Shown: positions 37,909-53,705, counted from the stretch's first letter. The stretch is DNA of 64,000 nt from Gemmatimonadaceae bacterium (GCA_045803545.1 JBJMOW010000005.1:768001-832000); one strand, 5' to 3'. Numbers and translations: made by a program. The notes: generated by a model from the sequence alone, not told the origin.

Positions 37909-38014
37909 GCCAAGATGGCGCACCGATTATAGAGCGGCAAGTTGGCACCCTGAGCCGCCCTTAAAACTCCGATTATCGGCCGTTATGGCAGGGATTTACG
38001 GCCTCGTGCTTGCC
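37909..38014 (+). promoter_or_regulatory. Putative sigma54 promoter and upstream palindromes for dnaK
   Basis: GG-N10-GC at 38000-38013 (CGGCCTCGTGCTTGCC); G(C/G)C-N5-GGC elements at 37909, 37936, 37979. Confidence 0.4.
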
Positions 38015-38075
38015 TATACCGACGGGAATAGAATACCGACATGGAGGCGCCACCGCCTTCCAGGAGAAATCAAGA

Positions 38076-40025
38076 ATGGCTGACAAAGTAATTGGAATCG
38101 ATCTGGGCACCACCAACTCCGTGGTTGCGGTCATGGAAGGCGGCGATCCCGTCGTCATCCCCAACGCGGAAGGTGGTCGCACCACACCGTCTGTCGTAGG
38201 CTTCACCAAAGACGGAGAGCGTCTGGTTGGACAGATCGCCAAAAGGCAGGCAGTAACCAACCCGCAGAACACCGTCTTCTCGATCAAGCGCTTCATGGGC
38301 CGCAAGATCTCGGAAGTGGCCGAAGAGACGAAGCGCGTACCCTACAAGGTCGTCGCGGGCCCGAACGACGTCGCGATGGTCGAAGTCCAGGGCAAGCGGT
38401 ACTCGCCGCCCGAGATCTCCGCGATGATCCTTCAGAAAATGAAGCAGACCGCTGAAGACTACCTCGGCTACAAAGTCGAGAAGGCAGTCATTACGGTCCC
38501 GGCGTACTTCAACGATTCCCAGCGTCAGGCGACCAAAGACGCCGGCAAGATCGCCGGCCTCGACGTGCTCCGCATCATCAATGAGCCGACAGCGGCTGCA
38601 CTCGCTTATGGTCTCGACAAGAAAAAGGACGAGAAGGTCGCCGTGTTCGACCTCGGTGGCGGTACGTACGACATCTCGGTGCTAGAGCTGTACGACGTCG
38701 AAGGCTCACGTCAGTTCGAAGTGAAATCGACCAACGGTGATACACACTTGGGCGGCGACGACTTCGATCAGCGTGTCATCGATTGGCTCGTAAGTGAGTT
38801 CAAGCGAGATCAGGCCATCGATCTGTCCAAGGATCCGATGGCGTTGCAGCGCCTGAAGGAGGCGGGCGAGAAGGCGAAGATGGAATTGTCCACCACCCAG
38901 TCCACGGACATCAATCTGCCTTTCATTACCGCCGACCAGAGCGGACCAAAGCATCTCAACTACACGCTCACCAGAGCGAAATTCGAGCAGCTCGTCGACG
39001 ATCTGATTCAGCGCACCATTCCGCCGATGGAACAGGCGCTCAAGGACGCGGGGATCAAGCCGAATGAGATCGATGAAGTGCTTCTCGTCGGTGGTTCGAC
39101 TCGTATTCCCAAGATCCAGGACATCGTACGCAAGTTCTTCGGGAAGGAGCCGAACAAGGGTGTCAATCCGGACGAAGTGGTCGCGATCGGCGCCGCGGTC
39201 CAGGGTGCAGTGCTCACCGGTGAGCAGAAGGATGTATTGCTGCTCGACGTAACACCGCTCTCGCTAGGTATCGAGACCCTTGGTGGAGTCACCACGGTGC
39301 TCATCCCGCGCAACACTACGATCCCGACTAAGAAGAGCGAGACCTTCTCGACGGCTGACGACAATCAGACGACGGTGGAGATCCACGTTCTCCAGGGGGA
39401 GCGCGAGCTCGCGACATACAACAAGACCATCGGCAAATTCCAGCTTACCGGAATTCCGCCCGCACCACGTGGAATGCCGCAGGTGGAGGTGACCTTCGAC
39501 ATCGACGCCAACGGTATTCTGCACGTGACCGCGAAGGACAAGGCGACCGGCAAGGAGCAGAAGATCCGTATCGAAGCTTCGAGCGGTTTGTCCGACTCCG
39601 AAATCGACCGTATGGTCAAGGACGCGGAAAAAAATGCGGCGGAGGACAAGAAGCAGCGTGAAGCGATCGACGCACGCAATCGCCTCGACTCGATGACCTA
39701 CGAAGTCGAGAAGAATGTCAAGGAATGGGGCGACAAAGTCTCAGCCGACACCAAGTCGAAGATCGACGCCGCAATCGAGCGCGCACGCAAGGCGCTTCGC
39801 GGCGACGATATGAACGAGATTCGCGCAGCGCAGGAAGAGCTCACCAAAGTCTTCAGCGAGGCAGGACAGGCGTTCTACCAGCAGCAGGCGCAGGCAGGTG
39901 CACAGCCCGATGCTGGTGCGACGGCGGGTGCAAATGCAGGCGCGAGCCCGGGCCCCGAAGCCGGGGGCGCCAAGCAGGATGATGTCGTCGAAGCCGATTA
40001 CGAAATCGTAGACGAGAAGAAGTAA
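38076..40025 (+). CDS. dnaK: Chaperone DnaK (start trimmed to ATG 38076)
   Basis: [38 protein letters not shown] upstream. Confidence 0.98.
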
Positions 40026-40055: not shown

Positions 40056-40097
40056 AAACAAAAGGCCCGACTGGTTTCCCAGTCGGGCCTTTTGTTT
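40056..40097. terminator. Bidirectional terminator between dnaK and the peptide-signalling locus
   Basis: AAACAAAAGGCCCGACTGG-TTTC-CCAGTCGGGCCTTTTGTTT. Confidence 0.9.
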
Positions 40098-40106
40098 TTT
40101 GGGCGT

Positions 40107-40412
40107 TCACGAGCCGGTCGAATCCGGCAGAATCTGGACGGTATCAGCAGGAAAGGCGTCCAGCGGATCGGGGCTGGAGTTGGGAATTCCCTCGACCTTC
40201 TCGCCTGGGCCGCTGTCGTCGCAGTCTTCCTCGCAGGTGACAACGCCGGAAATCAGGATGTATCGGCCGAAGGCGGCACCCGTGGGGGCGGTCAAACTGG
40301 CTTTCTTTTGAAGCGGACTGGTGGGGCCGGAGGGACCGGTGGAATCGCTGCAAGCGACGCTGCCACCGACGGCAAGAAGAGCAAAGCCCCAAAGCCAATG
40401 ACGACCTGACAT
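40107..40412 (-). CDS. Small lipoprotein (101 aa) carrying FGRYILISG-xxx-CEEDC; candidate peptide precursor
   Basis: GAGGGA upstream, lipobox SVAC, own sigma54 promoter, paralog at 46186-46416. Confidence 0.8.
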   Translation of the reverse strand: MSGRHWLWGFALLAVGGSVACSDSTGPSGPTSPLQKKASLTAPTGAAFGRYILISGVVTCEEDCDDSGPGEKVEGIPNSSPDPLDAFPADTVQILPDSTGS

Positions 40413-40472
40413 CAACGGATCCCTCGACGATAGAAGATCGGTGGAACACCTTAGATCTAACGACCCGGCCTA

Positions 40473-40519
40473 AGCATACCATGTGCCCCGAAGCAAGTCG
40501 TTTCGCCGTCGATACTTAG
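40473..40519 (-). promoter_or_regulatory. Sigma54 -24/-12 promoter with adjacent GCAA-N19-TTAG element
   Basis: Minus strand GGGCACATGGTATGCT (GG 40487-40486, GC 40475-40474); element 40493-40519. Confidence 0.8.
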
Positions 40520-40613
40520 TTTTTTGACGAGTCGTGCATTGCGTGTCTTCTGCAACAGTTCTGTCGCGCGGGAATTCGAAAAGCGGTCATGTCGCGAGCA
40601 AACAGCCGTCTCG

Positions 40614-42224
40614 CTAACCAGTGACCGTCCACTCGGCGAGATCCACCCACCACGCGTTTGGCCTGATTCCGATCGGATGAATCCGTTTGGATGCACCCTG
40701 GACGTTTCTCAACTCATAGATCCACATCGCAGGTGCGTCATCGGTGAGTATCCGATACGCCCGACGATACAACTCGGTGCTACGCGTCGGGTTCATCTCT
40801 CTGACTGCGCTGTCGATAAGGGCGTCGAACGCCGGATTGCTATAGGAGGTCGCGTTGTACCCGCCCTTCTTGATCTCAGAGCTCGCCCACTCCTCCCGCA
40901 CTGAAGATGGTGTCGGATCGATATGCCAGGCATTGAGCAGCACCTCGAATTTCCTGTTTTCCATATTGGCGCCGAAGGTGTTCAGCTCGAGCTCGTCGAT
41001 GCGAACTTCGGCGCCCGCCTTCCGCCACTGCTCCTGAAGCAAGACTGCGATTCGCTTACGAATGGTGCTCGAGCTTGGTACGCTCAAGCTGAATGAAAGC
41101 GGGATCGACCCGCGGGCGCGCATGCCGTTGGCGCCACGCTTCCAACCCAGGGAGTCAAGCGTGCGCGCCGCTCCGTCCGGATCATAGCGAAGCCCGAGGG
41201 TTGTATCGCTCGTGGCAAGAATTCGAGTCGCTGGACCATAGGCAACGAGGCCGAGCGTGTCGAATACGTTTTTCACGATCGACGCGCGATCGATTGCTCT
41301 CACCAAGGCGCGTCGGGTCTCTCGGTCGCCGAACACCGGGTGCGGTCCAGTATTCCGCGCATCGCGGAGGTTGAAAGCGGCGTACCCGTAGTCGAGGCTT
41401 CCGGCGGAGACGATCACGTCTTTGCCCTTCGACTTCACTTCCGCGACCCGTTCGGGCTTCACCACGTCGAGGAAGTCGGCGGTGCCGTCCAGAAATCTGA
41501 GCTCGGCGGTCGGATAATCCGCGGCGATCACCCAGATCACCCTGTCGGCATTCGGTCGACCCCGATAGTTGGTGGTGTCGGCCTGCAGCACGATTCGCGC
41601 GCTACGGTCCCACGACCCGAACTTGAAGCGGCCACTACCAACTGGCGCCCGGGCGAAATCGCTTTCCGCGAGCTTGGCCGCTTGTGTCTTCTCGAGCAAA
41701 TGTTGAGGCAGGATGACAACGGGTGTCGCCGCCTTGAAGAACTGATCGGGCGCACGTCTGTGAAACCATACGACTGCCGTCAGTGAATCGGGCACTGTCA
41801 CCGAATCAACATCGTCGAGATTCCCCGACAGCGGCGAAGCCAGTGAAGTGTCCTTCACCAGGCCGAAGGTGTAGCGCACGTCGTACGCGCTGACCGCCAC
41901 CCCGTCGTGCCAGCGTGCGCTGGGATTTATGTGAAATGATATCCAGGTCGAGTCGGGACTCCACCGCCAGCGATCGGCGAGTCGAGGAGTGAAGCCGGCG
42001 TCGCCGACGGTGTTCAAGGTCGGGCCCACATCAGCAAGGTTATCGAAAACCTGATCTACGACTTGCTTGCCCTGCAGCGTCAGTGTGAGGGGCGGCAACA
42101 GAACGTCAGCGTCTGCAGCGGTCGAGATGACGATCGTTCCACCTACACGCCTCTCCGTCGAGCACGCCGCGAGAACCGACATCAACGCGAGCGTGATCGA
42201 GAAAATGGGAGCTATTCTCTTCAA
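40614..42224 (-). CDS. Peptide ABC transporter substrate-binding lipoprotein (OppA/AppA-like, family 5), no permeases nearby
   Basis: Lipobox LAAC; LADRW, WHDG..VSAYDV.YT, PVGSGRFK, RRAL..AIDR; TTG start overlaps the upstream TGA (TTGA 42224-42221). Confidence 0.88.
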   Translation of the reverse strand: MKRIAPIFSITLALMSVLAACSTERRVGGTIVISTAADADVLLPPLTLTLQGKQVVDQVFDNLADVGPTLNTVGDAGFTPRLADRWRWSPDSTWISFHINPSARWHDGVAVSAYDVRYTFGLVKDTSLASPLSGNLDDVDSVTVPDSLTAVVWFHRRAPDQFFKAATPVVILPQHLLEKTQAAKLAESDFARAPVGSGRFKFGSWDRSARIVLQADTTNYRGRPNADRVIWVIAADYPTAELRFLDGTADFLDVVKPERVAEVKSKGKDVIVSAGSLDYGYAAFNLRDARNTGPHPVFGDRETRRALVRAIDRASIVKNVFDTLGLVAYGPATRILATSDTTLGLRYDPDGAARTLDSLGWKRGANGMRARGSIPLSFSLSVPSSSTIRKRIAVLLQEQWRKAGAEVRIDELELNTFGANMENRKFEVLLNAWHIDPTPSSVREEWASSEIKKGGYNATSYSNPAFDALIDSAVREMNPTRSTELYRRAYRILTDDAPAMWIYELRNVQGASKRIHPIGIRPNAWWVDLAEWTVTG

Positions 42225-43867
42225 ACGAAGTTTCCTATTGAGACGGCTGCAATGTTTTGCGGCGTCTGCCGGTCGGGAATCGTGGTGCTCGATGCCCATT
42301 CCAGAAACGCATCGAGCAGCATCGGATCGAACTGCCCGTTAGACGAGCGCATCACTTCGGCGGCACGCGCATGCGACAAGCTATCCCGGTACGACCGCGC
42401 CGTTGTCAGCGCGTCGTAGACGTCGGCGACGCAAAGAATCCGCGCAGCAAACGGGATATCATCCCCTTTCAGTCCATCCGGGTAGCCACTGCCATCCCAC
42501 CGCTCGTGATGATTGCGGATAATCGATCGCACATCACCCGGAAAATCGATGTCGGCCACGAGGTCCAGCCCCGCTTCCGGATGGCGCTTCATGATCGACC
42601 ACTCTTCCTCGGTGAGATCGCCCGCCTTGTTCAATACTTCGGTCGGTACGATGATCTTGCCGATGTCGTGGAGCAGTGCGCCAAGCCTGAACCAGAAGAG
42701 GGACTGGGCGTCCATCCCCATGCTGTCCGCCAGTACGCATGCAAAGAACGCGACGCGTTGGCAGTGACCCTGGGTGTAATGGTCTTTGCTCTCGATCGAA
42801 TCGCCCCAGTGGTGCGCCATCTCGAGAAACCTGGCTTCCAGCGCTGCGTTGCGACGTTCCACCTGCGCTACGCGGTGCTGTGCCTTTAGTCGTGAGTAAA
42901 GCGCGTGCGATTCGTTGAGGTGCGCGAGCATATCGCGATGCCGCTTCTGGGTCCAATACAGCTCCGCGAGTTGCTCGGTGACGTCTGCCTTCAGCAGCAG
43001 GTCCTCTGCTTCCTCGGCGCATTCTGACGCGCGGCCGAGGTATTCGGCGGCCTTCATGGAGTCGCCACGCTCACGTGCAATCACGCCGACATGGCGGAAG
43101 ACTTCACCGCGCCAGGAAGCGGTGATCTCACCCGTAAGCTCCAATAGTGGCGAGGCGCGTTCCTGCGCTTCCTCGAACCGGCCAGTCGCGATGCAGAGCT
43201 GAATCTGATTGAGGGCGACGTTCAGTCTGTTCGCCTGATCGTTCTCCTCACCGAAAGTGCGTTCCGCTTCGGCGTAGGCTTGCGCGGCGCTTTCGAGGTC
43301 CCCGAGGTCGCTATACGCGAGGCCAATGTTGTTGAGGACCTGCGCCGCCTGATCGCGCCGACCGAGCTTTCGATACCCTTCGAAACTCGACTTGAATGCG
43401 CTGAGCGCGCGGTTGATGTCACCGCGAATGCTGGCGACGGTACCCAGATTCTGATCGATCATCGCCAGTGCCTCTGCATCGCCAATCGACTGCGCGGTGA
43501 GGCGTGCTTCCGTGTAGCGCGACTCCGCCAGATCGAGATCACCACCGGTCTGATGGACGATGGCGACTACGTTGAGCGCTTGCGCGATTGCAGACGCTGA
43601 GCCGGCCTGCGATGCAGCGGCAACAGCCGCCTCCAATACATCCATCGCGGCGCCGCGATTGCCCAGCTCGAGGTAGACCCGGCCCAGCCAGCGCAGAGCG
43701 GACAGGCGGGTTACGTCGTCGGCAAACGGATTGCGCACGAGCAGCTCGTAGCGGTGCGACGCATCCGTCCAGCGACCCTCCCGCTCCGCGACTTTCGCTT
43801 CTTCAACGAGAGATTGTATTGCCTGCGATTCCACCTCGCTCTCGCGAGATGTGGAACGTGCCGTCAT
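42221..43867 (-). CDS. TPR-repeat plus HD-GYP phosphodiesterase, copy 1
   Basis: N-terminal TPRs; ESKDHYTQGH, LLHDIGK, HHERWDGSGYP, ADVYDAL. Confidence 0.92.
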   Translation of the reverse strand: MTARSTSRESEVESQAIQSLVEEAKVAEREGRWTDASHRYELLVRNPFADDVTRLSALRWLGRVYLELGNRGAAMDVLEAAVAAASQAGSASAIAQALNVVAIVHQTGGDLDLAESRYTEARLTAQSIGDAEALAMIDQNLGTVASIRGDINRALSAFKSSFEGYRKLGRRDQAAQVLNNIGLAYSDLGDLESAAQAYAEAERTFGEENDQANRLNVALNQIQLCIATGRFEEAQERASPLLELTGEITASWRGEVFRHVGVIARERGDSMKAAEYLGRASECAEEAEDLLLKADVTEQLAELYWTQKRHRDMLAHLNESHALYSRLKAQHRVAQVERRNAALEARFLEMAHHWGDSIESKDHYTQGHCQRVAFFACVLADSMGMDAQSLFWFRLGALLHDIGKIIVPTEVLNKAGDLTEEEWSIMKRHPEAGLDLVADIDFPGDVRSIIRNHHERWDGSGYPDGLKGDDIPFAARILCVADVYDALTTARSYRDSLSHARAAEVMRSSNGQFDPMLLDAFLEWASSTTIPDRQTPQNIAAVSIGNFV

Positions 43868-44883
43868 GACGATGCGAGAATGGTGCGCCGCTGGGAGCCT
43901 TCATCGCGCAGTTTGCGCGTCAAAGTGGGGCGGGAGATTCCAAGAATGCGGGCGGCCGCGCTCAGATTGCCACCGGTGAGGCCGATGGTGGTGTGAATCG
44001 CTTCGTCGACGATCGCCTGCAACGACTTCCCCTCGGGCGGGATGCGGATCATGCCGCCCGTCGGAGTTTCGACCAGCGGCACGTAGGAACGCCGCTGAAG
44101 TGAAAGGTGGTGCGGCTGAATGACGTCACCGGTACAGACGACAACCGCGCGCTCGATGACATTCTTGAGCTCGCGGATATTGCCCGGCCAACGGTGTCTT
44201 TCCAGCGCGGCGATCGAGTCCTGGCCCAGACGCAGGTTCTCCCGACCCTCACTTTCGGCGTGGCGGCGAACGAAAAAGTTGGCGAGGATAGGAATGTCTC
44301 CTTCCCTCTCGCGCAACGCCGGAAGCTCGAGCCTTGCAACGTTAAGTCGATAAAAGAGATCGGCACGGAAGCGGTTGTCAGCGACCGCCGTCTCCAGAGA
44401 CGAGTTTGTCCCTGCGACAATGCGTGCGTCAAGAGCGCGTTCTTCGGACCCGCCCAACCGCCGGAATCGCCTGTCTTCGACGACCCTTAGGAGCTTTGCC
44501 TGCAGCTTAAGTGGCAGTTCCGCGACCTCGTCGAGAAAAACAGTCCCGGCGCCGGCCACTTCGAAAAGACCCCGTTTTAACGCGCGGGCATCAGTAAACG
44601 CTCCCGGCTCGTGTCCAAAGAGCTCGCTTTCGAGCAAGGTTTCCGGGATGGCAGCGCAGTTAATCGCTACGAAAGGCTCGGCAGCCCGGGCGCTCGCCGC
44701 GTGGATGCCGCGGGCGAAAAGCTCTTTGCCAGTGCCCGTTTCACCTACGAGCAATACTGTCACGCTGCGACTCGCTGCCACTTGCGTCGCCAGGGCAATG
44801 ACTTCGCGGATTGCAGGGCTCTGTCCGATTACGTGAGCATCCCACCGCTCCTGCGCGGTTTGCTGCAGTCGGGCTGTAATAAT
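43864..44883 (-). CDS. Sigma54-dependent activator (AAA+ and Fis HTH, no sensory domain); true start probably upstream of GTG 44781, candidate ATT 44883/44880
   Basis: GETGTGKE, ESELFGHEPGAFTDA, FLDEV, FRADLFYRLN, WPGNIRELKN, GNLSAAARILGISRPTL; in-frame upstream IGQSPAIREV. Confidence 0.88.
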   Translation of the reverse strand: MITARLQQTAQERWDAHVIGQSPAIREVIALATQVAASRSVTVLLVGETGTGKELFARGIHAASARAAEPFVAINCAAIPETLLESELFGHEPGAFTDARALKRGLFEVAGAGTVFLDEVAELPLKLQAKLLRVVEDRRFRRLGGSEERALDARIVAGTNSSLETAVADNRFRADLFYRLNVARLELPALREREGDIPILANFFVRRHAESEGRENLRLGQDSIAALERHRWPGNIRELKNVIERAVVVCTGDVIQPHHLSLQRRSYVPLVETPTGGMIRIPPEGKSLQAIVDEAIHTTIGLTGGNLSAAARILGISRPTLTRKLRDEGSQRRTILASS

Positions 44884-45018
44884 TCCACCGTTCCTTTATC
44901 GCGTGGGCAACAACTGCCCGCGCGCGGAATTGTCATCGAGCGAATTGTCCCCAGCAACGGGGTTGGGCTTATCTAGGAGACGAGGAGACTGGTGGCCAAG
45001 TCACCAGTTTTGTTGGAC

Positions 45019-46128
45019 TTAGAGCTCTGCCGTTGGGGGCTCTGAAATGTCCGGATTCGGGCGGATGTACTTCGGGCGCAATCGCGCAGCCTTCTCCTTC
45101 GATGGGCCTGTTCCGAGCGTTGCGAGCAGTGCTTTAATCTCGGCGGCGTCGGTTCTGGCACCAAGGTCGTCAAATGACTCAGCCGCCTCACGCCAGGCCA
45201 GCTCGGCGTCAGCATTGTTTCCCAGGGCGTGCGAGGTCTGACCGAGCTCACGAAGCATCTCCGCCTGTAAGAGGCGGTCTTCCAGCCCCTCTGCCTCGAA
45301 GATTCCGATACGAAGCGTAGCGAGACTGGCGCTCAGCGACCCGCGTTCGCGCTCGATGCGGGCACGGCACTTCAGCGCCTCGGCCATGGTGAGGTGGTCC
45401 CCGCGGTGGTGGGCGCTCCCATAGGCTTCGGCGCACGCGTGCTCCGCTTCGTCGAGTTTTCCCATCGCGACCCAAACCCAGCCGAGATTGAGAACCAGTA
45501 CGCTCTCGACGAGTGCATCGCCCCGATTGCGGGCAATTCGCAACCCGCGGTCGAAAGTCTCTACCGCCCGCTGATAGTGTCCGAGCTTCGTGTACAGCAT
45601 GCCCAGGTTATTGAGAACCCAGGACATTGCCTCGCTATCCCTTGTCTGCTCGAACGCGCCAAGGCTGTTGTAGTAGCGAGCTTCCGCGGCGACGAATCTG
45701 CCGCGCATGTTGAGGAGAACGCCCCGGTTCTGCTCGATCATTCCGAGCAGACGCACGTCGCCCGCTCTGGCGGCGTACTCCGCCGCTTCGTGATAAAGGC
45801 GCTCGCATTCGATGAGGTTGCCGCGTCGCTGGGCGATGATCGCCAGGCAATTGTACGCGTGTGCCTTGCAGGCGGCCGATCCAGAGAGATCCGCCTGGTG
45901 CAGACTCTCTGTGTAGCAGCGATACGCGGCTTCCGTCTCACCCTGCTCGCGATGCAGAGTTCCCTTCCAGCGAAGGGCTTCGGCTAGAGCAGCTGATTCC
46001 TGCTCACGCTCGAGGGATTCGATGGCGTCGTCGTAGTAGCCGAATGCCTTCGCTGTATCACCCCGCCGCTCAGCATCGCGTGCCAGCTCGATCAGGCGAC
46101 GCGATTCTTCAGGTGCAGTCTGCTTCAT
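45019..46128 (-). CDS. Cytoplasmic TPR-only protein, copy 1
   Basis: Tandem helical repeats (LRWKGTLHREQGE, MIEQNRG, VLNNLG); no signal peptide; paralog of 48326-49348. Confidence 0.88.
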   Translation of the reverse strand: MKQTAPEESRRLIELARDAERRGDTAKAFGYYDDAIESLEREQESAALAEALRWKGTLHREQGETEAAYRCYTESLHQADLSGSAACKAHAYNCLAIIAQRRGNLIECERLYHEAAEYAARAGDVRLLGMIEQNRGVLLNMRGRFVAAEARYYNSLGAFEQTRDSEAMSWVLNNLGMLYTKLGHYQRAVETFDRGLRIARNRGDALVESVLVLNLGWVWVAMGKLDEAEHACAEAYGSAHHRGDHLTMAEALKCRARIERERGSLSASLATLRIGIFEAEGLEDRLLQAEMLRELGQTSHALGNNADAELAWREAAESFDDLGARTDAAEIKALLATLGTGPSKEKAARLRPKYIRPNPDISEPPTAEL

Positions 46129-46185
46129 AAAAGCGAGACTGTGTTTCGGCCCATGCTACCCCTCGCGAGCGGTGAGGTGAACAGT

Positions 46186-46416
46186 CTACTTCAAACTGTC
46201 GGTTCTGAAAAGAAGATTTTTCGCTTGGTCGGTGCAGCCTTCGACACAGGCTTGCGCGCCAGAGATGAGAATGTAGCGCGAATATGCTGCAGTAACCGGA
46301 GAGCTGGAATTTACGGTTTTAAGAGGCGGGCTGGTAAGAGCGGTGTAATCTCCGCACGCAAGACACGCGACGGCGCTCACAGCCGCCAAATACTTAAACA
46401 AACGGCGACCTAACAT
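46186..46416 (-). CDS. Small lipoprotein (76 aa) carrying YSRYILISG-xxx-CVEGC; candidate peptide precursor
   Basis: GAGGTGG upstream, lipobox CLAC, own sigma54 promoter, paralog at 40107-40412. Confidence 0.8.
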   Translation of the reverse strand: MLGRRLFKYLAAVSAVACLACGDYTALTSPPLKTVNSSSPVTAAYSRYILISGAQACVEGCTDQAKNLLFRTDSLK

Positions 46417-46462
46417 GTGAACCACCTCGGAAAGAGATCTGGGTCCTTCCCAGCTCAACCGT

Positions 46463-46578
46463 GGCATAGGGCGTGCCCTTTGCTAACCCACTGTTCTACA
46501 TGATCTTAGCGCGAGTGGGTTGGTTTCCCGCATCCATTTTGTCGTAACGCCGCTTTACGATCGTAAACGTTTCTTTAG
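46463..46578 (-). promoter_or_regulatory. Sigma54 promoter, CTAA-N19-TTAG element and two putative activator sites
   Basis: Minus strand GGGCACGCCCTATGCC (GG 46477-46476, GC 46465-46464); element 46483-46509; CGTAACGCCGCTTTACG 46543 and CGTAAACGTTTCTTTAG 46562. Confidence 0.8.
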
Positions 46579-46594
46579 CGGACTTTCTTCGGCG

Positions 46595-48241
46595 TCACGC
46601 GGCGGGACTGGAGGCGAAAATCGCCAACCTTTGTGGCGTCGGACGGCCTGGAATGTCGGCGGTCTCGGCCCAGGCAAGGAAGGTTTCGAGTAGCTCGGGA
46701 TCAAATTGACCTGCTGATGACTGCATGATCTCGGCTGCGCGGGCGTGGGTCAGGCCCGGACGATAGGATCTGGTCGTGGTCAGGGCGTCGTAGACATCGG
46801 CCACGCAGAGAATTCGCGCCGCGTAAGGGATCTGCTCGCCCTTGAGGCCGTCCGGGTAGCCGGCACCATCCCAGCGCTCGTGATGATTGCGAATGATGGC
46901 GCGTATGTCACCGGGAAAATCGATGTCAGCGACCAGTTCGAGCCCCGCCTCGGGGTGACGCTTCATGATCGACCACTCTTCATCGGTCAGCTTGCCCGGC
47001 TTGTTTAGCACCTCGGTGGGAACGATGATTTTGCCAATGTCGTGCAGAAGTGCGCCAATCCTGAACCAGAACAGTGAGCGCGAATTGAATCCCGCGGTCT
47101 CGGCGAGTACGCACGCGAAGAAAGCGACGCGCTCGCAGTGGCCCTGGGTGTAGCGATCCTTGCTTTCGATCGAGTTGCCCCACTGCTTCGCCATCTCGAG
47201 GAAACGGGACTCCAAGGCATCGTTGCGCTTATCGACCTGTGCCACCCGATGCTGCGCCTTGAGCTGCGAATAGAGTGAGTGCGACTCGTTGAGCGAGTGA
47301 AGCATGTCGCGGTGCCGCTTCTGTGACCAGTAAACTTCCGCGAGCTGCTCCGCGACGTCCGCCCGCAGGAGAAGGTCACCGCTGTCGATTGCGAGATCTT
47401 CTGCGCGCAACAGGCTGTCGGTCGCTTTCGCGTAATCTCCGCACTCGCGAGCGATCACGCCCACGTGGCGGTGTACCTCCCCGCGCCACGGCGCCTGCTC
47501 CTTCGTGGCGACCTCCAATAGCTCGTCGCATTGGACGAGCGCTTCGTCGAAGCGACGTGCCGCGATGTAGAGCTGCACCTTGTTGACAGCGAGGTCGAGT
47601 TGTCGCGCGCGGTCTCCCTCTTCTTCGAACGCCCGAGCGGCTTCGTTGTACGCAACTTCGGCATCGCTCAGCTCGCCGAGCTCCATGTAGGCGAGTGCGA
47701 TGTTGTTCAGTATCTGAGCTTCATGATTACGCATGCCCAGAGTCTGGTATCCGAGATGGCTCAGACGGAAAGCTTCGAGCGCAACCCGGATGTCGCCGCG
47801 GATCATTGCGACCGTGCCGAGGTTTTGATCGATCATGGCGATCAATGCGCCGTCGCCGGCCACCTCCGCTTTGGCGCGCGCGGCGGCGTAAATAGCGGCA
47901 GCCTGGTCGAGGTCTCCGCCAACCTGGTAGGCGATGCCAACCACGTTGAGCGCCTGAGCCACGGCCGGTGGCGAGCCACAGATGTCAGCAGATGTGACCG
48001 CCAATTCGAGCACGTCCAGCGCCGCGCCACGATTCCCCTGCTCGAGATAGGCGCGACCGAGCCAGCGGAGGGCGGCAAGGCGAGTATCCGGCTGCGTGTG
48101 GGGGTCGCGAACCAACGTCTCATAGACTGCGCAGGCGTCGGCCCATCGACCTTCCCGCTCGGCTTTCTTGGCGAGGTCAATACTTTCGCGAACGGTGGTG
48201 GATTCCACCGCCTTCAATTCAACTGTGGGCCGGTTGGTCAT
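46595..48241 (-). CDS. TPR-repeat plus HD-GYP phosphodiesterase, copy 2
   Basis: 548 aa like copy 1; ESKDRYTQGH, LLHDIGK, HHERWDGAGYP. Confidence 0.92.
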   Translation of the reverse strand: MTNRPTVELKAVESTTVRESIDLAKKAEREGRWADACAVYETLVRDPHTQPDTRLAALRWLGRAYLEQGNRGAALDVLELAVTSADICGSPPAVAQALNVVGIAYQVGGDLDQAAAIYAAARAKAEVAGDGALIAMIDQNLGTVAMIRGDIRVALEAFRLSHLGYQTLGMRNHEAQILNNIALAYMELGELSDAEVAYNEAARAFEEEGDRARQLDLAVNKVQLYIAARRFDEALVQCDELLEVATKEQAPWRGEVHRHVGVIARECGDYAKATDSLLRAEDLAIDSGDLLLRADVAEQLAEVYWSQKRHRDMLHSLNESHSLYSQLKAQHRVAQVDKRNDALESRFLEMAKQWGNSIESKDRYTQGHCERVAFFACVLAETAGFNSRSLFWFRIGALLHDIGKIIVPTEVLNKPGKLTDEEWSIMKRHPEAGLELVADIDFPGDIRAIIRNHHERWDGAGYPDGLKGEQIPYAARILCVADVYDALTTTRSYRPGLTHARAAEIMQSSAGQFDPELLETFLAWAETADIPGRPTPQRLAIFASSPAA

Positions 48242-48325
48242 TGCGCTCTGCAGGCGACAACGAAAGACGAGCGGCGCTCTGGTGCTGCAACCAGAGTCTA
48301 TGGAAAAGCGACTGCCTGGAAGTGC

Positions 48326-49348
48326 CTACTGCAGCAGCTCGAGCTGATTCCTGACTTCTGTTAGCTCTGGCACAGCTCCGATCTTCTCGTACGAGTCAAA
48401 AGCTTCTCGCAAGGCAGAGCGCGCAGCGCCGGCGTTGCCTACGGCACGGGAGATCTCGCCCAGCTCGCGAAGCATTTCGGCGTGGAGGAGCCGGTCTTCG
48501 GCTCCTTCGGCTTCGTAGATCGCGATGCGGAGCGTGGCAATGCTCATGTCGAGCGCACCACGCTGCCGCTCGATGGCGGCACGGACACGCAGCGCGCCAG
48601 CAGCGCTGAGGTGGTCTCCGCGACGTTGCGCCTGACCAAGTGCGTCGACGCACCAGAGGTCTGCTTTGTCGAGTCTGCCGAGACCCATCCACGCTTCGGC
48701 GATGTTCAGCGTGATGACGTTCTTCACGATGCTATCGTTCCGGGCGATTGCGATCGCCATCCCGCGCTGCAGATGCTCGAGCGCTTCGCCGTAATTGCGC
48801 AACTTGGTGTTCAGAATTCCCAGGTTGTTGAGAACCCAGGACATCGGTTCGGTGTCACCCGCGGTCTCGAAAGCACCGAGGCTATTGGAGTAGAACGCCG
48901 CGGCCTTTCCATAGTCGCCAACCATGCTCGCGAGCACACCGCGATTCTGTTCTATCATGCCGAGCAGGCGCGCCTCTCCAGCCTTCACGGCGAGCTCGGA
49001 CGCTTCCGCGTAGAGACGCTCGGTTTCCTTGTGCTCGCAGCGACGCTGCGAGATGGTGCCGAGGCAGTTGAGTGCGTGAGCCTGGTGACCGATGGAACCG
49101 GTCGCTCTTGCCCTCTCCAGGCTTGCCGTATAACAGCGAAACGCTGCTTCGGTTTCGCCCCGCTCCCGAAGCAGCGTTCCTTTCCATCGCAAAACGTCGG
49201 CGATAAATGCGTCGGTGCAATCCTCACCGAGCTGCGCCAGCGCATCGTCGAACAGACCAAGCGCCTTGTCGTTTTCTTCCCGCTTTTCAGCTGTTCGCGC
49301 CAGTTCTACAAGTTGGCGGGCGCGCTCTACATTCTTTGAGTTTTTCAT
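48326..49348 (-). CDS. Cytoplasmic TPR-only protein, copy 2
   Basis: LRWKGTLLRERGETEAA, MIEQNRG, VLNNLG, EDRLLHAEMLRELG. Confidence 0.88.
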   Translation of the reverse strand: MKNSKNVERARQLVELARTAEKREENDKALGLFDDALAQLGEDCTDAFIADVLRWKGTLLRERGETEAAFRCYTASLERARATGSIGHQAHALNCLGTISQRRCEHKETERLYAEASELAVKAGEARLLGMIEQNRGVLASMVGDYGKAAAFYSNSLGAFETAGDTEPMSWVLNNLGILNTKLRNYGEALEHLQRGMAIAIARNDSIVKNVITLNIAEAWMGLGRLDKADLWCVDALGQAQRRGDHLSAAGALRVRAAIERQRGALDMSIATLRIAIYEAEGAEDRLLHAEMLRELGEISRAVGNAGAARSALREAFDSYEKIGAVPELTEVRNQLELLQ

Positions 49349-49396
49349 GTAGACCTGCCCGTTAGAGACACTGGTCGATCTTGGTGCTACACCGGC

Positions 49397-50050
49397 TCAG
49401 CCTGACGCCAGCATGTATCGGGAGAAGTGGTTCAACAGCCACGTCTCGACTTCAGCCTGGCCGCTGCGTGGATTCGAGAAAATCGTGGTCGTTTCGATTT
49501 CCAACGCACGTAGAATGCCTGACAGATCCAGCAGGTCGTGGGCGAAATACGCGCCGAACGAATTCAGTGCCTTCGGCGTGCCGTATACCGCAGTGTTGTT
49601 GAGGCGCTGGGTGACGACCACCGGTTTACGGAACGTGAGACCGTGCGGCTGCATGTCATAAGCGACGTAGCCGGTGCCGTCCGACGTGATGGTGATAGTG
49701 GTCGACGAGGTCAACGCGCCGTAGGGGAAACTGATCGTGAAGTCCGATCCCGGGATGGCGAGGGTTCCACCATTGACGCCAATCGTCGCAGAAACGCTGC
49801 GGACCTGATTGACGTGAGAAGGTGACCACTTCACTGCGTTGACCGGTATACCGTTCGGATCCGTCTGGAATCCGATGACGCGGATCACGTCGCCGAGGAG
49901 ATTGACGACTCCGCCGACGAGTCCTGAAAGGAGACCGTTATCGGCGGTGGTTGGAGCGACTGGTTGAGTTGGGATGCTGTCCGTGCACGACATGACTCCG
50001 ACAGCCGTGACAACGAGCAGCAGCGAGCGGAAAAATCTTGAGCGAATCAT
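49397..50050 (-). CDS. ZU5-like-domain lipoprotein ending HFSRYMLASG (start trimmed to ATG 50050)
   Basis: Lipobox VMSC; IGVNGGTLAIPGSDFTISFPYGAL and MQPHGLTFRKPV match the ZU5 pattern; terminal HFS. Confidence 0.8.
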   Translation of the reverse strand: MIRSRFFRSLLLVVTAVGVMSCTDSIPTQPVAPTTADNGLLSGLVGGVVNLLGDVIRVIGFQTDPNGIPVNAVKWSPSHVNQVRSVSATIGVNGGTLAIPGSDFTISFPYGALTSSTTITITSDGTGYVAYDMQPHGLTFRKPVVVTQRLNNTAVYGTPKALNSFGAYFAHDLLDLSGILRALEIETTTIFSNPRSGQAEVETWLLNHFSRYMLASG

Positions 50051-50085
50051 TGGGCGAACCTGGCTAAGGGGAAAAGGCGCGGTGA

Positions 50086-50706
50086 TCAACCAGAAGCAAG
50101 CATGTAACGCGAGAAGTGCCTGATGATCCACACCTGCGCTTCAGGGAGCCGCGCATTGAGTGGCGAGAAGATCGTGGTCGAAGGCTCGATCTCGAGGACC
50201 GGGACTTTGCCACTGAGCTTCACCTTATCATCGGAGATATAGGCCGCGAAGATCGACGTTCTCAGCGGCTGACCTGCGACGGTGGTGTTGCGCAGGGACT
50301 GCGTGATGGTGACGTCTTTTTTGAACTGCGTCCCCGTCGGCTCCATCTTGTAGGCGACGTACTTCTCGTCGGCCGTGACGGTGATGGTCAGCGCCGAGCC
50401 GAGCGCCCCGGCCGGGATGTCCATCGTGAAGCCGGTTTCGGGAATCGAGATCCGCCCGCCAGACTGATCGACGCGCTGCGAAACCTTTACCTGAGTTTTG
50501 CCTTTGTTGCTCCACCACAGGGCATGCAGCTCGAGGTCAGCCGCGGCATTGTTTATCGAACTGGTAACCGAGCCGGAGCCAGGACCTTTCGCGGCAGCTG
50601 CGTCCAGGGGAGCAGTGAGACTCTGGAGAGCGGGATCGGCGCAGGAAGCGATAAGGAGCGCGCCGACGAGCGAGCCAAAGGATCTGAAGAGTCTAAGGCG
50701 AAGCAT
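50086..50706 (-). CDS. ZU5-like-domain lipoprotein ending HFSRYMLASG
   Basis: Lipobox IASC; VDQSGGRISIPETGFTMDIPAGAL and MEPTGTQFKKDV; terminal HFS. Confidence 0.8.
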   Translation of the reverse strand: MLRLRLFRSFGSLVGALLIASCADPALQSLTAPLDAAAAKGPGSGSVTSSINNAAADLELHALWWSNKGKTQVKVSQRVDQSGGRISIPETGFTMDIPAGALGSALTITVTADEKYVAYKMEPTGTQFKKDVTITQSLRNTTVAGQPLRTSIFAAYISDDKVKLSGKVPVLEIEPSTTIFSPLNARLPEAQVWIIRHFSRYMLASG

Positions 50707-50748
50707 TCTGGGTCCGTGTTAGGGAAGCGGGGTTGAGGCCCTCCCTAA

Positions 50749-50881
50749 GGCAACGGCTGTGCCCAGCGCTAAGCTGTTTTAAATCAATGAGTTAGCTTTT
50801 CCACATTGAGCGAGCTCATCAATAACGGTGCAATATTTTTTTACACCCGAAATTTTTCTTTACATCTGTCAATTTTTTACG
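50749..50881 (-). promoter_or_regulatory. Sigma54 promoter, IHF-consensus site and putative activator sites
   Basis: Minus strand TGGGCACAGCCGTTGCC (GG 50763-50762, GC 50751-50750); CTAA-N19-TTAG 50769-50795 containing AATCAATGAGTTA (WATCAANNNNTTR); TTTAC at 50840, 50859, 50876. Confidence 0.85.
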
Positions 50882-51084: not shown

Positions 51085-52650
51085 ATGTCGATGGCAAATA
51101 ACAGAGCACGGCTCGTCGTAGCCGTAATTACCGCTTTTGTAGGCGGATTGATCGTCGCATCCGGGTTCAACTGGACCAAGCTCGGATTTGCGCAAACTCG
51201 TCCCGCCGCGGCAGTAGTCCAGCCAATTGCCGAGGCCAGCAACGCGTTCGTCGCGATCGCCAACAACGTCACTCCGGCGGTCGTTTCGATCGAAGTCGTA
51301 AGCACGCCGAAGAGCTCGAATAGCACGACTCGCGGACGCGTCCAGGTTCCACAAGGCGTTCCGCCTGACATGCAGGACTTCTTCCGTCAATTCGATATCC
51401 CGCAGCAATCGCGTCCAATGCGCGGTCAGGGTTCCGGGTTCATCGTAACGTCGAACGGATACATTCTTACCAACAATCACGTCGTCACCAATCAGGATCG
51501 TGAAACGGTGGCCGATCGCGTGACGGTGAGACTGCTCGATCATCGCGTGTTCACTGCGAAAGTGATCGGTCACGATCGCACGACCGACGTCGCGGTAATC
51601 AAGATCGATGGCAGCAACTTCCCCACCTTGCCGCTTGGCAACGATATGAACGCGCGCACCGGCGAATGGGTACTCGCGATCGGCAATCCGCTTGGTCTCG
51701 AAAATACCGTCACCGCCGGTATCATCAGCGCGAAAGGCCGCAGCCTCGCCGAGCTGATGAATCCGAATGGAACGAATCAGTACGCGATCAGCGATCTGAT
51801 ACAGACCGACGCGGCGATCAACCCCGGCAACTCCGGTGGTCCGCTCGTCAATGCGCGTGGCGAAGTGATCGGCATCAACAGCGCGATCGCCAGTCCGACC
51901 GGCTATAACGCGGGCTACGGTTTCGCAATTCCGATCACGCTGGCTAAGCGCGTCATGGATCAGCTCATTGCCAATGGGCGCGTACGCGTTCCGGCGCTCG
52001 GCATCGGCATCGATGATGTGAGTCCTGAAGACGCAGCGGTCGCGGGCGTGAAAGACATTCGAGGCGTTCTCGTTCGGAACTTCCCGAGCGACGATACGCC
52101 GGCTAAGAAGGCGGGCCTTCAGCCGGGTGACGTGATCATCACGGCGGATGGTCAGCCGGTCGATCGCGTCAGCACTCTCCAGAGAATCGTGCGCAATCAC
52201 AACCCTGGCGAGACGATCGAGATCGAAGCGATGCGGTACGGTCAGCGCAAGACTTTCAGCGTCAAGTTGATGGAAGCGCAGACTGACGCCGAAGTCGCTT
52301 CCAGTAACTCCACTCCCGCGAGCAACGGCGGCACCATTCATCCGGCGCTGGGGATCGCAGTGGCGCCGGTAAGTGCCGAGATGGCGGCGCAGGCAAGGAT
52401 GCCAACTCCAGTTCGTGGCGTCATGGTTTCCGATGTCACCCCTGGCGGTCCTGCCGACGAGAAGCTGACTCAGAACGACGTCATCACCGAAGTCCTTTAC
52501 CCGCTGCCGCGCCGTCCGATCAACTCGCCGACGGATCTACAGTCGATACTGAAAGGATTGAAGAACGGCGAGTATATCAGTCTCAGTGTTTTCAACCTAG
52601 CGGACAGAAATCATGCTCCGCGGATCGTCAACATTCAGGTTGGCAGATAG
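51085..52650 (+). CDS. degP: HtrA/DegP-family serine protease with two PDZ domains
   Basis: GSGFIV, TNNHVV, DVAVIK, QTDAAINPGNSGGPL. Confidence 0.92.
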   Translation: MSMANNRARLVVAVITAFVGGLIVASGFNWTKLGFAQTRPAAAVVQPIAEASNAFVAIANNVTPAVVSIEVVSTPKSSNSTTRGRVQVPQGVPPDMQDFFRQFDIPQQSRPMRGQGSGFIVTSNGYILTNNHVVTNQDRETVADRVTVRLLDHRVFTAKVIGHDRTTDVAVIKIDGSNFPTLPLGNDMNARTGEWVLAIGNPLGLENTVTAGIISAKGRSLAELMNPNGTNQYAISDLIQTDAAINPGNSGGPLVNARGEVIGINSAIASPTGYNAGYGFAIPITLAKRVMDQLIANGRVRVPALGIGIDDVSPEDAAVAGVKDIRGVLVRNFPSDDTPAKKAGLQPGDVIITADGQPVDRVSTLQRIVRNHNPGETIEIEAMRYGQRKTFSVKLMEAQTDAEVASSNSTPASNGGTIHPALGIAVAPVSAEMAAQARMPTPVRGVMVSDVTPGGPADEKLTQNDVITEVLYPLPRRPINSPTDLQSILKGLKNGEYISLSVFNLADRNHAPRIVNIQVGR

Positions 52651-53141: not shown

Positions 53142-53633
53142 TCAGACTTCTGCTTCTACGTTGATTCCCGATTCCGCCAGCGCGGTTAGCAACTGGTCTG
53201 TCTTCCCTTCTTCATCGAGGGTCTGCTGCAGCAGGTCTGCGTGATTGTCGAAGCCGAGTTGACGCGCGTAGGTGCGCACGGTTCCATATCCAGCGATCTC
53301 GTAATGCTCAACGTGCTGCGCCTTGTTGATCAAACCGGCGTCCAGAACATCGGGATCGGGATCTTCCTTCATCAATTCGCTACCTTCCTCGATCAATCCT
53401 TCCATGCCAACGCATTTCTTGCCGCGTGGGCTTACACCGAGATCCCGGCAGATTTGCTCGAGCCGCTCCGCGTGCTTCCGCGTTTCCTGGAGGTGAGTGC
53501 GGAATGCTTCCTTCAACTGTGGATCGTTTGCAGCCTTGGCCATTTTCGGCAGCGCCTTCACCAGCTGCTTCTCTGCGCTGTAAAGGTCTTTGAGTTCGTC
53601 AACGAACAGGTCTTTAAGGGTGTCGAGTTCCAT
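53142..53633 (-). CDS. Ferritin-like DUF892 (YciE/YciF) stress protein
   Basis: LKDLYSAEKQL, HLQETRKH, AQHVEHYEIAGYGT. Confidence 0.92.
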   Translation of the reverse strand: MELDTLKDLFVDELKDLYSAEKQLVKALPKMAKAANDPQLKEAFRTHLQETRKHAERLEQICRDLGVSPRGKKCVGMEGLIEEGSELMKEDPDPDVLDAGLINKAQHVEHYEIAGYGTVRTYARQLGFDNHADLLQQTLDEEGKTDQLLTALAESGINVEAEV

Positions 53634-53689: not shown

Positions 53690-53705
53690 AGCAATTGCGG
53701 TGCCG
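53690..53705 (-). promoter_or_regulatory. Sigma54 -24/-12 promoter for the DUF892 gene
   Basis: Minus strand CGGCACCGCAATTGCT. Confidence 0.7.

Follow-up and report, generated by a model that had tools for sequence, protein, structure and literature searches.

A phylum-wide module of ZU5 lipoproteins, TPR sensors and HD-GYP proteins in Gemmatimonadota and its possible role in peptide sensing

The subject of this analysis is a cluster of ten genes in a 64,000-nucleotide stretch of DNA from a Gemmatimonadaceae bacterium (GCA_045803545.1, JBJMOW010000005.1:768001-832000). This whole stretch is called the window, and positions are counted from its first letter. An earlier note, made from the sequence alone, had described ten co-oriented genes between dnaK and degP and had read them as an undescribed circuit in which an exported peptide is sensed by tetratricopeptide repeat (TPR) proteins. 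The gene arrangement was borne out by the open reading frame (ORF) map of the window: dnaK (38010-40025, plus strand) and degP (51085-52650, plus strand) flank ten ORFs, all on the minus strand. In the order of transcription, these encode two lipoproteins (ZU5A and ZU5B), a stand-alone TPR protein (TPR1), a protein with TPR and HD-GYP domains (TPRHD1), a small lipoprotein (sLipo1), a second TPR protein (TPR2), a sigma54 activator (bacterial enhancer-binding protein, bEBP), a second TPR-HD-GYP protein (TPRHD2), a solute-binding protein (SBP) and a second small lipoprotein (sLipo2).

50086..50706, minus strand: ZU5A, lipoprotein of 206 residues, lipobox IASC, ending HF-SRYMLASG (the hyphen marks the predicted cut); tail codons 50089-50112
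49397..50050, minus strand: ZU5B, paralogous lipoprotein of 217 residues, lipobox VMSC; tail codons 49400-49423
48326..49348, minus strand: TPR1, stand-alone cytoplasmic TPR protein of 340 residues; Pfam TPR only
46595..48241, minus strand: TPRHD1, 548 residues, N-terminal TPR and C-terminal HD-GYP domain, HDIGK and GAGYP intact; HD_5 E 4e-40
46186..46416, minus strand: sLipo1, lipoprotein-like precursor of 76 residues with AYSRYILISG-x3-C-x3-C; motif codons 46258-46281
45019..46128, minus strand: TPR2, stand-alone TPR protein of 369 residues, 17 helices; Pfam TPR only
43864..44883, minus strand: sigma54 activator with Sigma54_activat, AAA_lid_14 and HTH_8, GAFTDA loop; likely ATT start
42221..43867, minus strand: TPRHD2, 548 residues, TPR and HD-GYP domains, HD_5 E 3e-42; start overlaps the activator stop (ATGA)
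40614..42299, minus strand: SBP, orphan family-5 solute-binding lipoprotein; Pfam SBP_bac_5, 222 bits, E 1e-65
40107..40412, minus strand: sLipo2, lipoprotein of 101 residues, lipobox SVAC, with AFGRYILISG-x3-C-x3-C; motif codons 40245-40268

Three of the earlier gene models are amended here. ZU5B starts at 50050 (MIRSRFF), sLipo1 starts at 46416 (the ATG at 46467 falls within a promoter-like site, site 2 below), and the activator has no canonical start. The earlier note had also reported a short motif of the type (F/Y)(S/G)RY(M/I)L(A/I)SG in four lipoproteins of two architectures. In a six-frame scan of the genome (3,700,320 bases), the pattern [SGAT]RY[MILV]L[AIVLS]SG had 4 matches, all of them in the cluster, and this four-fold occurrence is far from chance. 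The sharing of the motif thus stands; the two architectures do not, since the small lipoproteins read as ZU5-less derivatives of the ZU5 lipoprotein of module 2. The module is in fact duplicated in this genome: there are two tail types, SRYMLASG always in module 1 and SRYILISG always in module 2, each with its own pair of TPR and TPR-HD-GYP proteins.

Both lipoproteins of about 200 residues narrowly missed the Pfam cut-off for ZU5 (20.4 and 20.7 bits against 21). An AlphaFold2 model of ZU5A, built on 18 sequences, was confident for residues 60-206, mostly with a predicted local distance difference test (pLDDT) value above 80. When this model was compared with the PDB by Foldseek, the ZU5 domains of ankyrin-B, ankyrin-R, UNC5b and ZO-1 came out on top (probability 1.00, best E 4.2e-5), followed by autoproteolytic GAIN domains. 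The ZU5 beta-sandwich fold is confirmed at the level of this model. In the ZU5A model, H197-F198-S199 lies in the turn between strands 188-197 and 200-205. His, Phe and Ser, together with the lipobox Cys, were invariant in both alignments (A1, 18 sequences; A2, 26 sequences), and the triad stands 7-8 residues from the C-terminus in most family members. The 872 close homologues of the ZU5 lipoprotein were all unnamed or labelled 'ZU5 domain'. A profile search returned 2449 cluster representatives with E up to 1e-3; among the best 150, HFS followed by a short C-terminal tail was found in 129, and the other 21 matches end before the end of the profile. One study (PMC3210808) documents HFS as the motif at which PIDD and Nup98 are cleaved; the peptide bond before Ser is attacked by this residue, and the resulting fragments often remain associated. 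For bacterial surface proteins, ZU5 autoprocessing is a proposal made on comparative grounds, as far as the available part of that paper goes (PMC3482391). Judging from model and motif, the ZU5 lipoproteins are probably self-cleaving between His-Phe and Ser.

The small lipoproteins matched no Pfam family. The lipobox of sLipo1 is atypical, (C/G)LAC followed by GD, with an invariant Cys; those of ZU5A, ZU5B and sLipo2 are clear. In three same-genus genomes (loci L027, L029 and L030), the slot of sLipo1 is occupied by a full ZU5 lipoprotein that ends in HFSRYILISG and a short extension, which in one of the three contains a C-x3-C pair. sLipo1 is therefore best taken as a derivative without the ZU5 body, which retains the signal peptide, the linker and the tail. 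It has 45 cluster representatives in the database at 54-94% identity, with intact signal peptides, and RYILISG and both Cys were invariant in 25 of 25 aligned sequences of the sLipo1 type, while the flanks varied. Among the fetched same-genus loci, sLipo2 occurs only in this genome and its closest relative, L023. A regular-expression scan of 110 loci gave 7 matches for ZU5-less small lipoproteins, of which 4 are real cases, all in L023, L024 and L025; those in L112, L114 and L154 were spurious, and no such protein was found outside the genus in these 110 loci. The small lipoproteins thus appear to be genus-specific ZU5-less derivatives that kept the tail. A reading of these Cys-bearing proteins as ribosomally synthesized and post-translationally modified peptides was rejected, as Pfam revealed no maturase-type genes in the cluster.

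The tail after HF was compared across 119 ZU5 genes in the fetched loci. Its median length was 8 residues, 87 of the 119 tails ended by position 8, and 61 distinct 8-mers occurred. The Ser after HF was invariant, and Tyr was found at +3 in 117 of the 119. ZU5A and ZU5B are only 41% identical overall, and their last ten residues (HFSRYMLASG) are identical in all 6 genomes that contain both. Taken together, the identical tails of the paralogs and the retention of the tail in proteins that no longer have the ZU5 body point to a function of the tail beyond completing the ZU5 fold. A predicted cleavage site 7-8 residues from the end would offer a built-in way to make a peptide.

None of the TPR proteins has a signal peptide, in keeping with a cytoplasmic location. 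The HD_5 scores of TPRHD1 and TPRHD2 were 137.6 and 144.5 bits (cut-off 27.2), and HDIGK and G(A/S)GYP are present in the translations. The genome has 9 GGDEF and 9 HD_5 matches, which means that cyclic di-GMP (c-di-GMP) signaling exists in this organism. The model of TPR2 reached a pLDDT of 90.8 over 17 helices. In Foldseek, the TPR domains of LGN/Pins ranked first, all of them crystallized with extended peptide ligands; Rap-pheromone complexes (query TM-score, TMq, 0.56-0.59), MalT and subunits of the anaphase-promoting complex (APC) were also matched. Invariant Asn residues were found at positions 93, 134, 174 and 214 of TPR2, about 40 positions apart (38 sequences). In LGN, and likewise in receptors of the Rap, Rgg, NprR, PlcR and PrgX (RRNPP) group, ladders of Asn residues of this kind bind extended peptides by their backbone. 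No RRNPP-specific Pfam or NCBIfam model matched the TPR proteins. Within this genome, the TPR subfamily is confined to the cluster, save for one weak match (E 3.5e-8). Co-folding of TPR2 (38-row alignment) with the mature portion of sLipo1 (residues 22-76), run without controls, gave a score of 0.02 against a mark of 0.32, which speaks neither for nor against binding.

The best PDB match of the SBP was the oligopeptide-binding protein AppA (1xoc, E 8.9e-39), and by sequence the protein is a peptide binder, although all NCBIfam equivalog models scored below their cut-offs. The genome contains one oppABCDF-like locus, on another contig; the regions concerned are G000 C5:222683-228333, C2:1060479-1061576 and C4:1091023-1092141. 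With a single opp-like locus for four family-5 SBPs, three of them are orphans, the in-cluster SBP among them. Thus, the OppA-like binder of the earlier note is indeed, by sequence, of the peptide type, but it is an accessory rather than an integral part: among 48 eligible TPR-HD-GYP genes, an SBP gene comes next in 11, and the cluster has no permease gene.

The activator scored 210 bits for Sigma54_activat and 39.7 bits for HTH_8, and its GAFTDA loop is one change from the GAFTGA consensus. It has no N-terminal sensory domain at any possible start, and the same was found in 12 of 12 loci examined. Upstream of 44781 there is no ATG, GTG or TTG from which the AAA+ core could be translated. In six same-genus loci, the protein sequence encoded by the roughly 35 codons before the core is conserved, and each locus has an Ile codon (ATT, ATC or ATA) in the same place; here it is preceded by AAGGAA and GGTGGA. 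The activator therefore probably starts at this conserved Ile codon near 44880-44883. This arrangement (44860-44900, minus strand) suggests a conserved non-canonical start and possibly control of the activator level by translation. Upstream of the lipoprotein genes, the following elements were found.

50811..50868, minus strand: conserved block GTGTAAAAAAAnnTTGCACCGTTATTGATGAGCT upstream of site 1, kept in 6 of 8 aligned loci of the genus; the L032 and L028 copies are degenerate
50749..50764, minus strand: sigma54-type promoter-like site 1, GGGCACAGCCGTTGCC, upstream of ZU5A
46463..46478, minus strand: sigma54-type promoter-like site 2, GGGCACGCCCTATGCC, upstream of sLipo1 and conserved at orthologous places
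40473..40488, minus strand: sigma54-type promoter-like site 3, GGGCACATGGTATGCT, upstream of sLipo2, kept only in L023 among the fetched loci

The GGCAC...TTGC core of site 1 was conserved in 8 of 8 aligned orthologous regions. The pattern GGGCAC-N5-WTGCY occurs exactly 3 times in the window, always on the minus strand, against 0.10 expected, an enrichment that is circular because the pattern was derived from these same three sites; it occurs 8 times in the whole genome, 3 of these in the cluster. The textbook pattern TGGCAC-N5-TTGCW with up to 2 mismatches was not enriched in the window (19 found, 26 expected), and TGGCAC-N5-TTGC[AT] had no exact match in the 3.7-Mb genome, though rpoN is present. 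Independently of how the pattern was derived, GGCAC-N5-NTGC lies upstream of the lipoprotein gene in 10 of 11 same-genus loci, and it also precedes ZU5 genes in three loci of other genera (L076, L084 and L085). The sigma54-type sites that the earlier note had placed ahead of three lipoprotein units can thus be kept as putative promoters, and the block at 50811..50868 is a candidate binding region for the activator or integration host factor (IHF). Footprint-like stretches upstream of two sites (50811-50868 and 46500-46560, minus strand) both contain TAAAGAAA...TTT...GTAAA-like elements, to which the first adds an A-tract and then TTGCACCGTTATTGAT; both are candidate activator or IHF sites. Another sigma54-type site, CGGCACCGCAATTGCT (53690-53705, minus strand), lies upstream of an ORF of 163 residues (53142-53633), and GGCACCGCTATTGC sites resembling CGGCACCGCAATTGCT occur in two same-genus loci, L032 and L033.

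Within the genus, a ZU5 lipoprotein gene was found in 13 of 24 genomes, most of them incomplete, and the whole cluster lies between dnaK and degP in the loci of sufficient length. Of 301 genomes from the phylum, 115 encode at least one member of the family, counting the unpublished G087 and G209 (113 of 299 without them). A pattern search of species-representative genomes returned 79 loci, all labelled Gemmatimonadota; it used a narrower alignment (A3) and is biased toward the HFSGYI subfamily. Considering that the patterns came from one subfamily, absence outside the phylum is not established, and the module is restricted to Gemmatimonadota as far as searched. Of the 79 loci, 71 had enough downstream sequence to be eligible, and in 60 of them a TPR, TPR-HD-GYP or activator gene starts at most 1.2 kb downstream on the same strand. 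The same pairing was observed in 16 of 20 further loci picked across five families. The module is therefore real and phylum-wide in Gemmatimonadota, and the co-occurrence of motif genes with TPR-HD-GYP genes in other genomes, on which the earlier note had staked its proposal, was found. The most frequent architectures were ZU5-TPRHD (15 loci), ZU5-TPR-activator-TPRHD (13), the latter with an SBP gene added (11), and ZU5-activator-TPRHD (6, without a stand-alone TPR gene). This recurrence defines the module core as a ZU5 lipoprotein plus a TPR-HD-GYP protein. Where eligible, the activator gene was directly preceded by a stand-alone TPR gene in 28 of 37 cases. Tandem duplication was also seen in other Gemmatimonadaceae loci (L163, L107 and L071); L163, for instance, reads ZU5-TPRHD-ZU5-TPRHD with the tails SGYIVASD... 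and SGYTVASA.... Paired modules with different tails are thus recurrent.

The module resembles the RRNPP systems (Rap-Phr, NprR-NprX, PlcR-PapR, PrgX, Rgg-SHP and AimR-AimP) in several respects. The gene of an exported precursor adjoins that of a cytoplasmic TPR-type receptor, a few residues at the C-terminus of the precursor are the putative signal, and a family-5 peptide binder is at hand. A stand-alone TPR protein beside a transcription factor recalls Rap acting on its partner, and feedback onto the precursor gene is likely. By analogy, a gene for a soluble cytoplasmic sensor beside one for an exported protein is the signature of circuits that export, re-import and sense a peptide. However, there is no sign of common ancestry: the sequences nearest to the module TPRs come from LGN/Pins and kinesin light chain rather than from Rap. 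Here the TPR domain is N-terminal or stands alone, in RRNPP receptors it is C-terminal, while the effector is a C-terminal HD-GYP domain or a separate bEBP instead of an N-terminal helix-turn-helix (HTH) or Rap-type domain. The precursor is a folded, probably self-cleaving lipoprotein of about 200 residues, whereas RRNPP propeptides have about 40 residues and are cleaved by proteases outside the cell. The host is a diderm and does not belong to Firmicutes. Judged by these homologies, the module is similar to RRNPP in logic and not in ancestry, and membership fails on receptor homology, domain order and host range. RRNPP systems have been described for Firmicutes and their mobile elements, according to the available portion of a published account (PMC10075063).

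Other parts of the module have parallels of their own. With PIDD, Nup98, the FIIND of NLRP1/CARD8 and GAIN domains, the ZU5 lipoproteins share a beta-sandwich in which an H-F-S triad occupies the turn that leads into the last strand; this strand, which follows the cut, belongs to the fold and could be a cryptic ligand exposed on disruption. In the GAIN domain of adhesion GPCRs (G protein-coupled receptors), the 'Stachel' peptide is a tethered agonist. The difference is that here a stand-alone bacterial lipoprotein ends after the strand, and 7-10 residues without any effector domain would be released. PspF and HrpR/S are sigma54 activators without a sensory domain that are controlled in trans by a partner protein (PspA and HrpV, respectively). 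The module activator likewise consists of AAA+ and HTH parts only, and in the 28 of 37 cases the gene directly upstream encodes a non-enzymatic stand-alone TPR protein; the presumed partner is a TPR superhelix and not of the PspA or HrpV type. Control by c-di-GMP, as in FleQ, is a possible alternative for the module activator. RpfG is an HD-GYP phosphodiesterase with a sensory input. TPRHD1 and TPRHD2 resemble it in having an HD_5 domain with intact HD and GYP motifs, but their input is an 8-repeat TPR domain instead of a receiver domain; the predicted substrate is c-di-GMP or another cyclic dinucleotide. In the accessible parts of the literature, bacterial ZU5 domains have been reported within large polymorphic toxins and surface proteins (PMC3482391), and two comparative papers treat toxins, surface proteins and death-domain systems. 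In titles and abstract openings, no published description of a ZU5 lipoprotein combined with TPR, HD-GYP and sigma54 proteins was found, although Additional File 1 of PMC3482391, a list of bacterial ZU5 proteins, could mention the family. To that extent, the statement of the earlier note that this is not a described system agrees with the literature. The parts belong to known families (ZU5, TPR, HD-GYP, bEBP and SBP_bac_5); it is their combination for which no description was found.

Based on these findings, we put forward the tentative hypothesis, with a probability of about 0.45, that autoproteolysis at HFS frees a C-terminal peptide that is re-imported and sensed by the TPR proteins. The lipoprotein would be exported and lipidated, as the invariant lipobox Cys suggests, and would then cleave itself between His-Phe and Ser through an N-to-O acyl shift of the kind used by PIDD and Nup98, a step that the fold and motif suggest. 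A C-terminal peptide of 7-10 residues would result, SRYMLASG in module 1 and SRYILISG plus the Cys-bearing tail in module 2. Since this peptide is the last beta-strand of the ZU5 domain, it would probably remain docked until the domain is unfolded or degraded, and it may thus be a cryptic signal released by damage or turnover and not a constitutively secreted one. A peptide-binding protein (the orphan SBP in clusters that encode one) would pick up the free peptide, which would be imported through the sole Opp-type permease of the genome and bound in the cytoplasm in the concave, Asn-lined groove of the LGN-like TPR proteins. The TPR-HD-GYP proteins might then alter c-di-GMP hydrolysis, and the stand-alone TPR protein might control the sensor-less activator in trans. 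The activator would in turn drive the GG-N10-GC promoters ahead of each lipoprotein gene, by which a feedback loop would be closed. In module 2, where the ZU5 body was lost, the small lipoproteins would have to be processed by another protease. As modelled, such a system would report periplasmic protein turnover or damage as much as cell density. The wider claim, that Gemmatimonadota possess a peptide import-and-sense system independent of RRNPP in which the last ZU5 strand is a cryptic agonist, released on unfolding or degradation and read by LGN-like TPR sensors, is possible but on balance doubtful.

Co-variation of peptide and receptor, which the earlier note had suggested as a check, gave a divided answer. 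In a Mantel-type test of 60 modules, tail divergence was correlated with TPR-domain divergence after control for the ZU5 body and the HD domain (partial r 0.27), a value reached in 0 of 999 permutations, which ignore relatedness. The reverse controls gave 0.01 and 0.003, and the effect persisted when TPR columns were subsampled to the length of the ZU5 body (mean 0.22). In contrast, in 29 independent, non-overlapping sister pairs the tail difference followed overall divergence (rho 0.83 with HD distance), and no excess of tail change with the TPR residual was found (rho 0.09, p 0.65). This null result speaks against re-import and sensing of the peptide, and so do several other observations. 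In the model, the tail forms one strand (200-205) of the ZU5 beta-sandwich and pairs with 188-197. As a strand of the fold, in a class of proteins whose fragments often stay together, its Ser at position 1, Tyr at position 3 and alternating hydrophobic residues may serve folding or catalysis alone. Similarly, since the shared motif is mostly the last ZU5 strand plus the catalytic Ser, its conservation is partly structural. sLipo1 and sLipo2 lack the His, and sLipo2 also lacks the Ser, so neither would be capable of self-cleavage. The SBP is accessory and the cluster is devoid of a permease gene, as described above, and in 11 of the 71 eligible ZU5 loci the downstream sequence contains neither a TPR nor an HD-GYP nor an activator gene. 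Moreover, the TPR proteins are no nearer to RRNPP receptors than to generic TPR superhelices: RapJ matched with E 1.5e-3 and LGN/Pins with 4e-17 to 4e-14, and the Rap entries stood at Foldseek ranks 36-46 among generic superhelices.

The main rival takes the lipoprotein as a regulated output, i.e., as cargo: the TPR sensors would answer an unrelated cytoplasmic cue and set c-di-GMP level and sigma54 transcription, and ZU5 cleavage would serve the maturation or anchoring of the protein itself. It would account for sigma54-type sites directly upstream of the lipoprotein genes, for modules without an SBP (the majority) and for the null result in the sister pairs; tail conservation can be structural, and autoprocessing of surface proteins by ZU5 has been proposed comparatively in the part of the source that is accessible (PMC3482391). 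Nevertheless, we consider it rather unlikely, because it leaves unexplained why the tail is still invariant in 25 of 25 small lipoproteins that have shed the ZU5 body, why two paralogs of only 41% identity end in identical tails, why a peptide-type SBP joined repeatedly (11 loci), and why the TPR subfamily is confined to the cluster but for the single weak match. Alternatively, the TPR proteins might monitor export. They would bind the exposed C-terminal tail of the precursor before export, and precursor that builds up under a shortage of Sec, Lgt, Lsp or Lol capacity would change c-di-GMP and sigma54 transcription with no re-import at all. TPR domains that read C-terminal peptides are well known, such as Hop with EEVD and PEX5 with PTS1. 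The tail stands at the extreme C-terminus in most members (the 87 of 119 ending by position 8), receptors and precursor are made in one compartment, and again most modules lack an SBP. However, export monitoring gives no role to the invariant His-Phe-Ser site or the ZU5 fold, the motif of the small lipoproteins is internal with 20-50 residues after it, and the SBP, where present, is unexplained; this alternative is improbable.

Two further explanations start from the small lipoproteins. Cleaved ZU5 domains could exchange their last strand in the periplasm with the strands of small lipoproteins or of other ZU5 domains and so assemble lipoprotein complexes, the TPR, HD-GYP and activator proteins merely regulating expression. 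The motif is indeed a beta-strand completing the sandwich, this strand recurs in the small lipoproteins, where another strand-like segment with two Cys comes after it, and fragments of self-cleaving proteins remain non-covalently associated, according to the accessible text of PMC3210808. But ZU5-less small lipoproteins were found only in this genus (L023, L024 and L025 among 110 loci), so strand exchange cannot be the general function of a phylum-wide module, and the tight pairing with cytoplasmic TPR proteins would go unexplained, which makes it quite improbable. The small motif ORFs could also be functionless, decaying remnants of ZU5 genes, with the four-fold motif a by-product of duplication. 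The position of sLipo1 exactly in the full-ZU5 slot of L027, L029 and L030 and the restriction of sLipo2 to this genome and its closest relative would fit. Decay can hardly be believed, though, in view of the 45 cluster representatives of sLipo1 with intact signal peptides, invariant RYILISG and two Cys amid variable flanks, its conserved sigma54-type site and, as weak evidence, its coverage by contigs from RNA libraries.

Export, re-import and TPR sensing of peptides are regarded as a speciality of Firmicutes. If re-import and sensing of the ZU5 tail are true, a non-homologous counterpart in a diderm soil phylum would show that this logic evolved at least twice. It would also provide the first function for bacterial stand-alone ZU5 autoproteases, tie peptide sensing directly to c-di-GMP turnover and constitute a new way to control a sensor-less sigma54 activator. 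If the system is moreover independent of RRNPP, the 61 tail 8-mers would be a repertoire of private signals and the duplicated modules orthogonal channels. Even if the peptide reading is wrong, there is a phylum-wide operon that couples an exported, predicted self-cleaving lipoprotein to cytoplasmic sensors, for which no explanation has been described. A direct test of the module would require no more than two synthetic peptides and a small number of recombinant proteins.

A few minor features complete the description of the locus. NCBIfam gave no match for the four lipoproteins, and all other matches of module proteins were below cut-off. PADLOC defence models matched only generic TPR, HD and AAA+ domains of module proteins, and none matched the lipoproteins or the SBP. 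One further element was read from the sequence at the end of the cluster.

40056..40100, no strand assigned: GC-rich hairpin flanked by runs of A and of T, in the gap where dnaK and sLipo2 converge

This hairpin is probably a bidirectional terminator; a simple scan for sigma70 promoters and terminators, whose counts were at chance level, did not flag it. Four soil metatranscriptome libraries contain contigs that match parts of the cluster with at least 92% identity (DNA carry-over is possible), namely ZU5A/ZU5B, sLipo1 with the start of TPR2 across their junction, and sLipo2. They indicate neither strand, starts nor level, and the uncovered parts are uninformative; they are a weak hint that parts of the cluster are transcribed. 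In some contigs from these libraries, the HD-GYP regions of TPRHD2 and TPRHD1 are fused (42432/46827 and 47003/42650); about 4.4 kb is left out, and 15-23 unrelated letters stand at the junction. These may come from single-module relatives or may be assembly chimeras between the paralogs.

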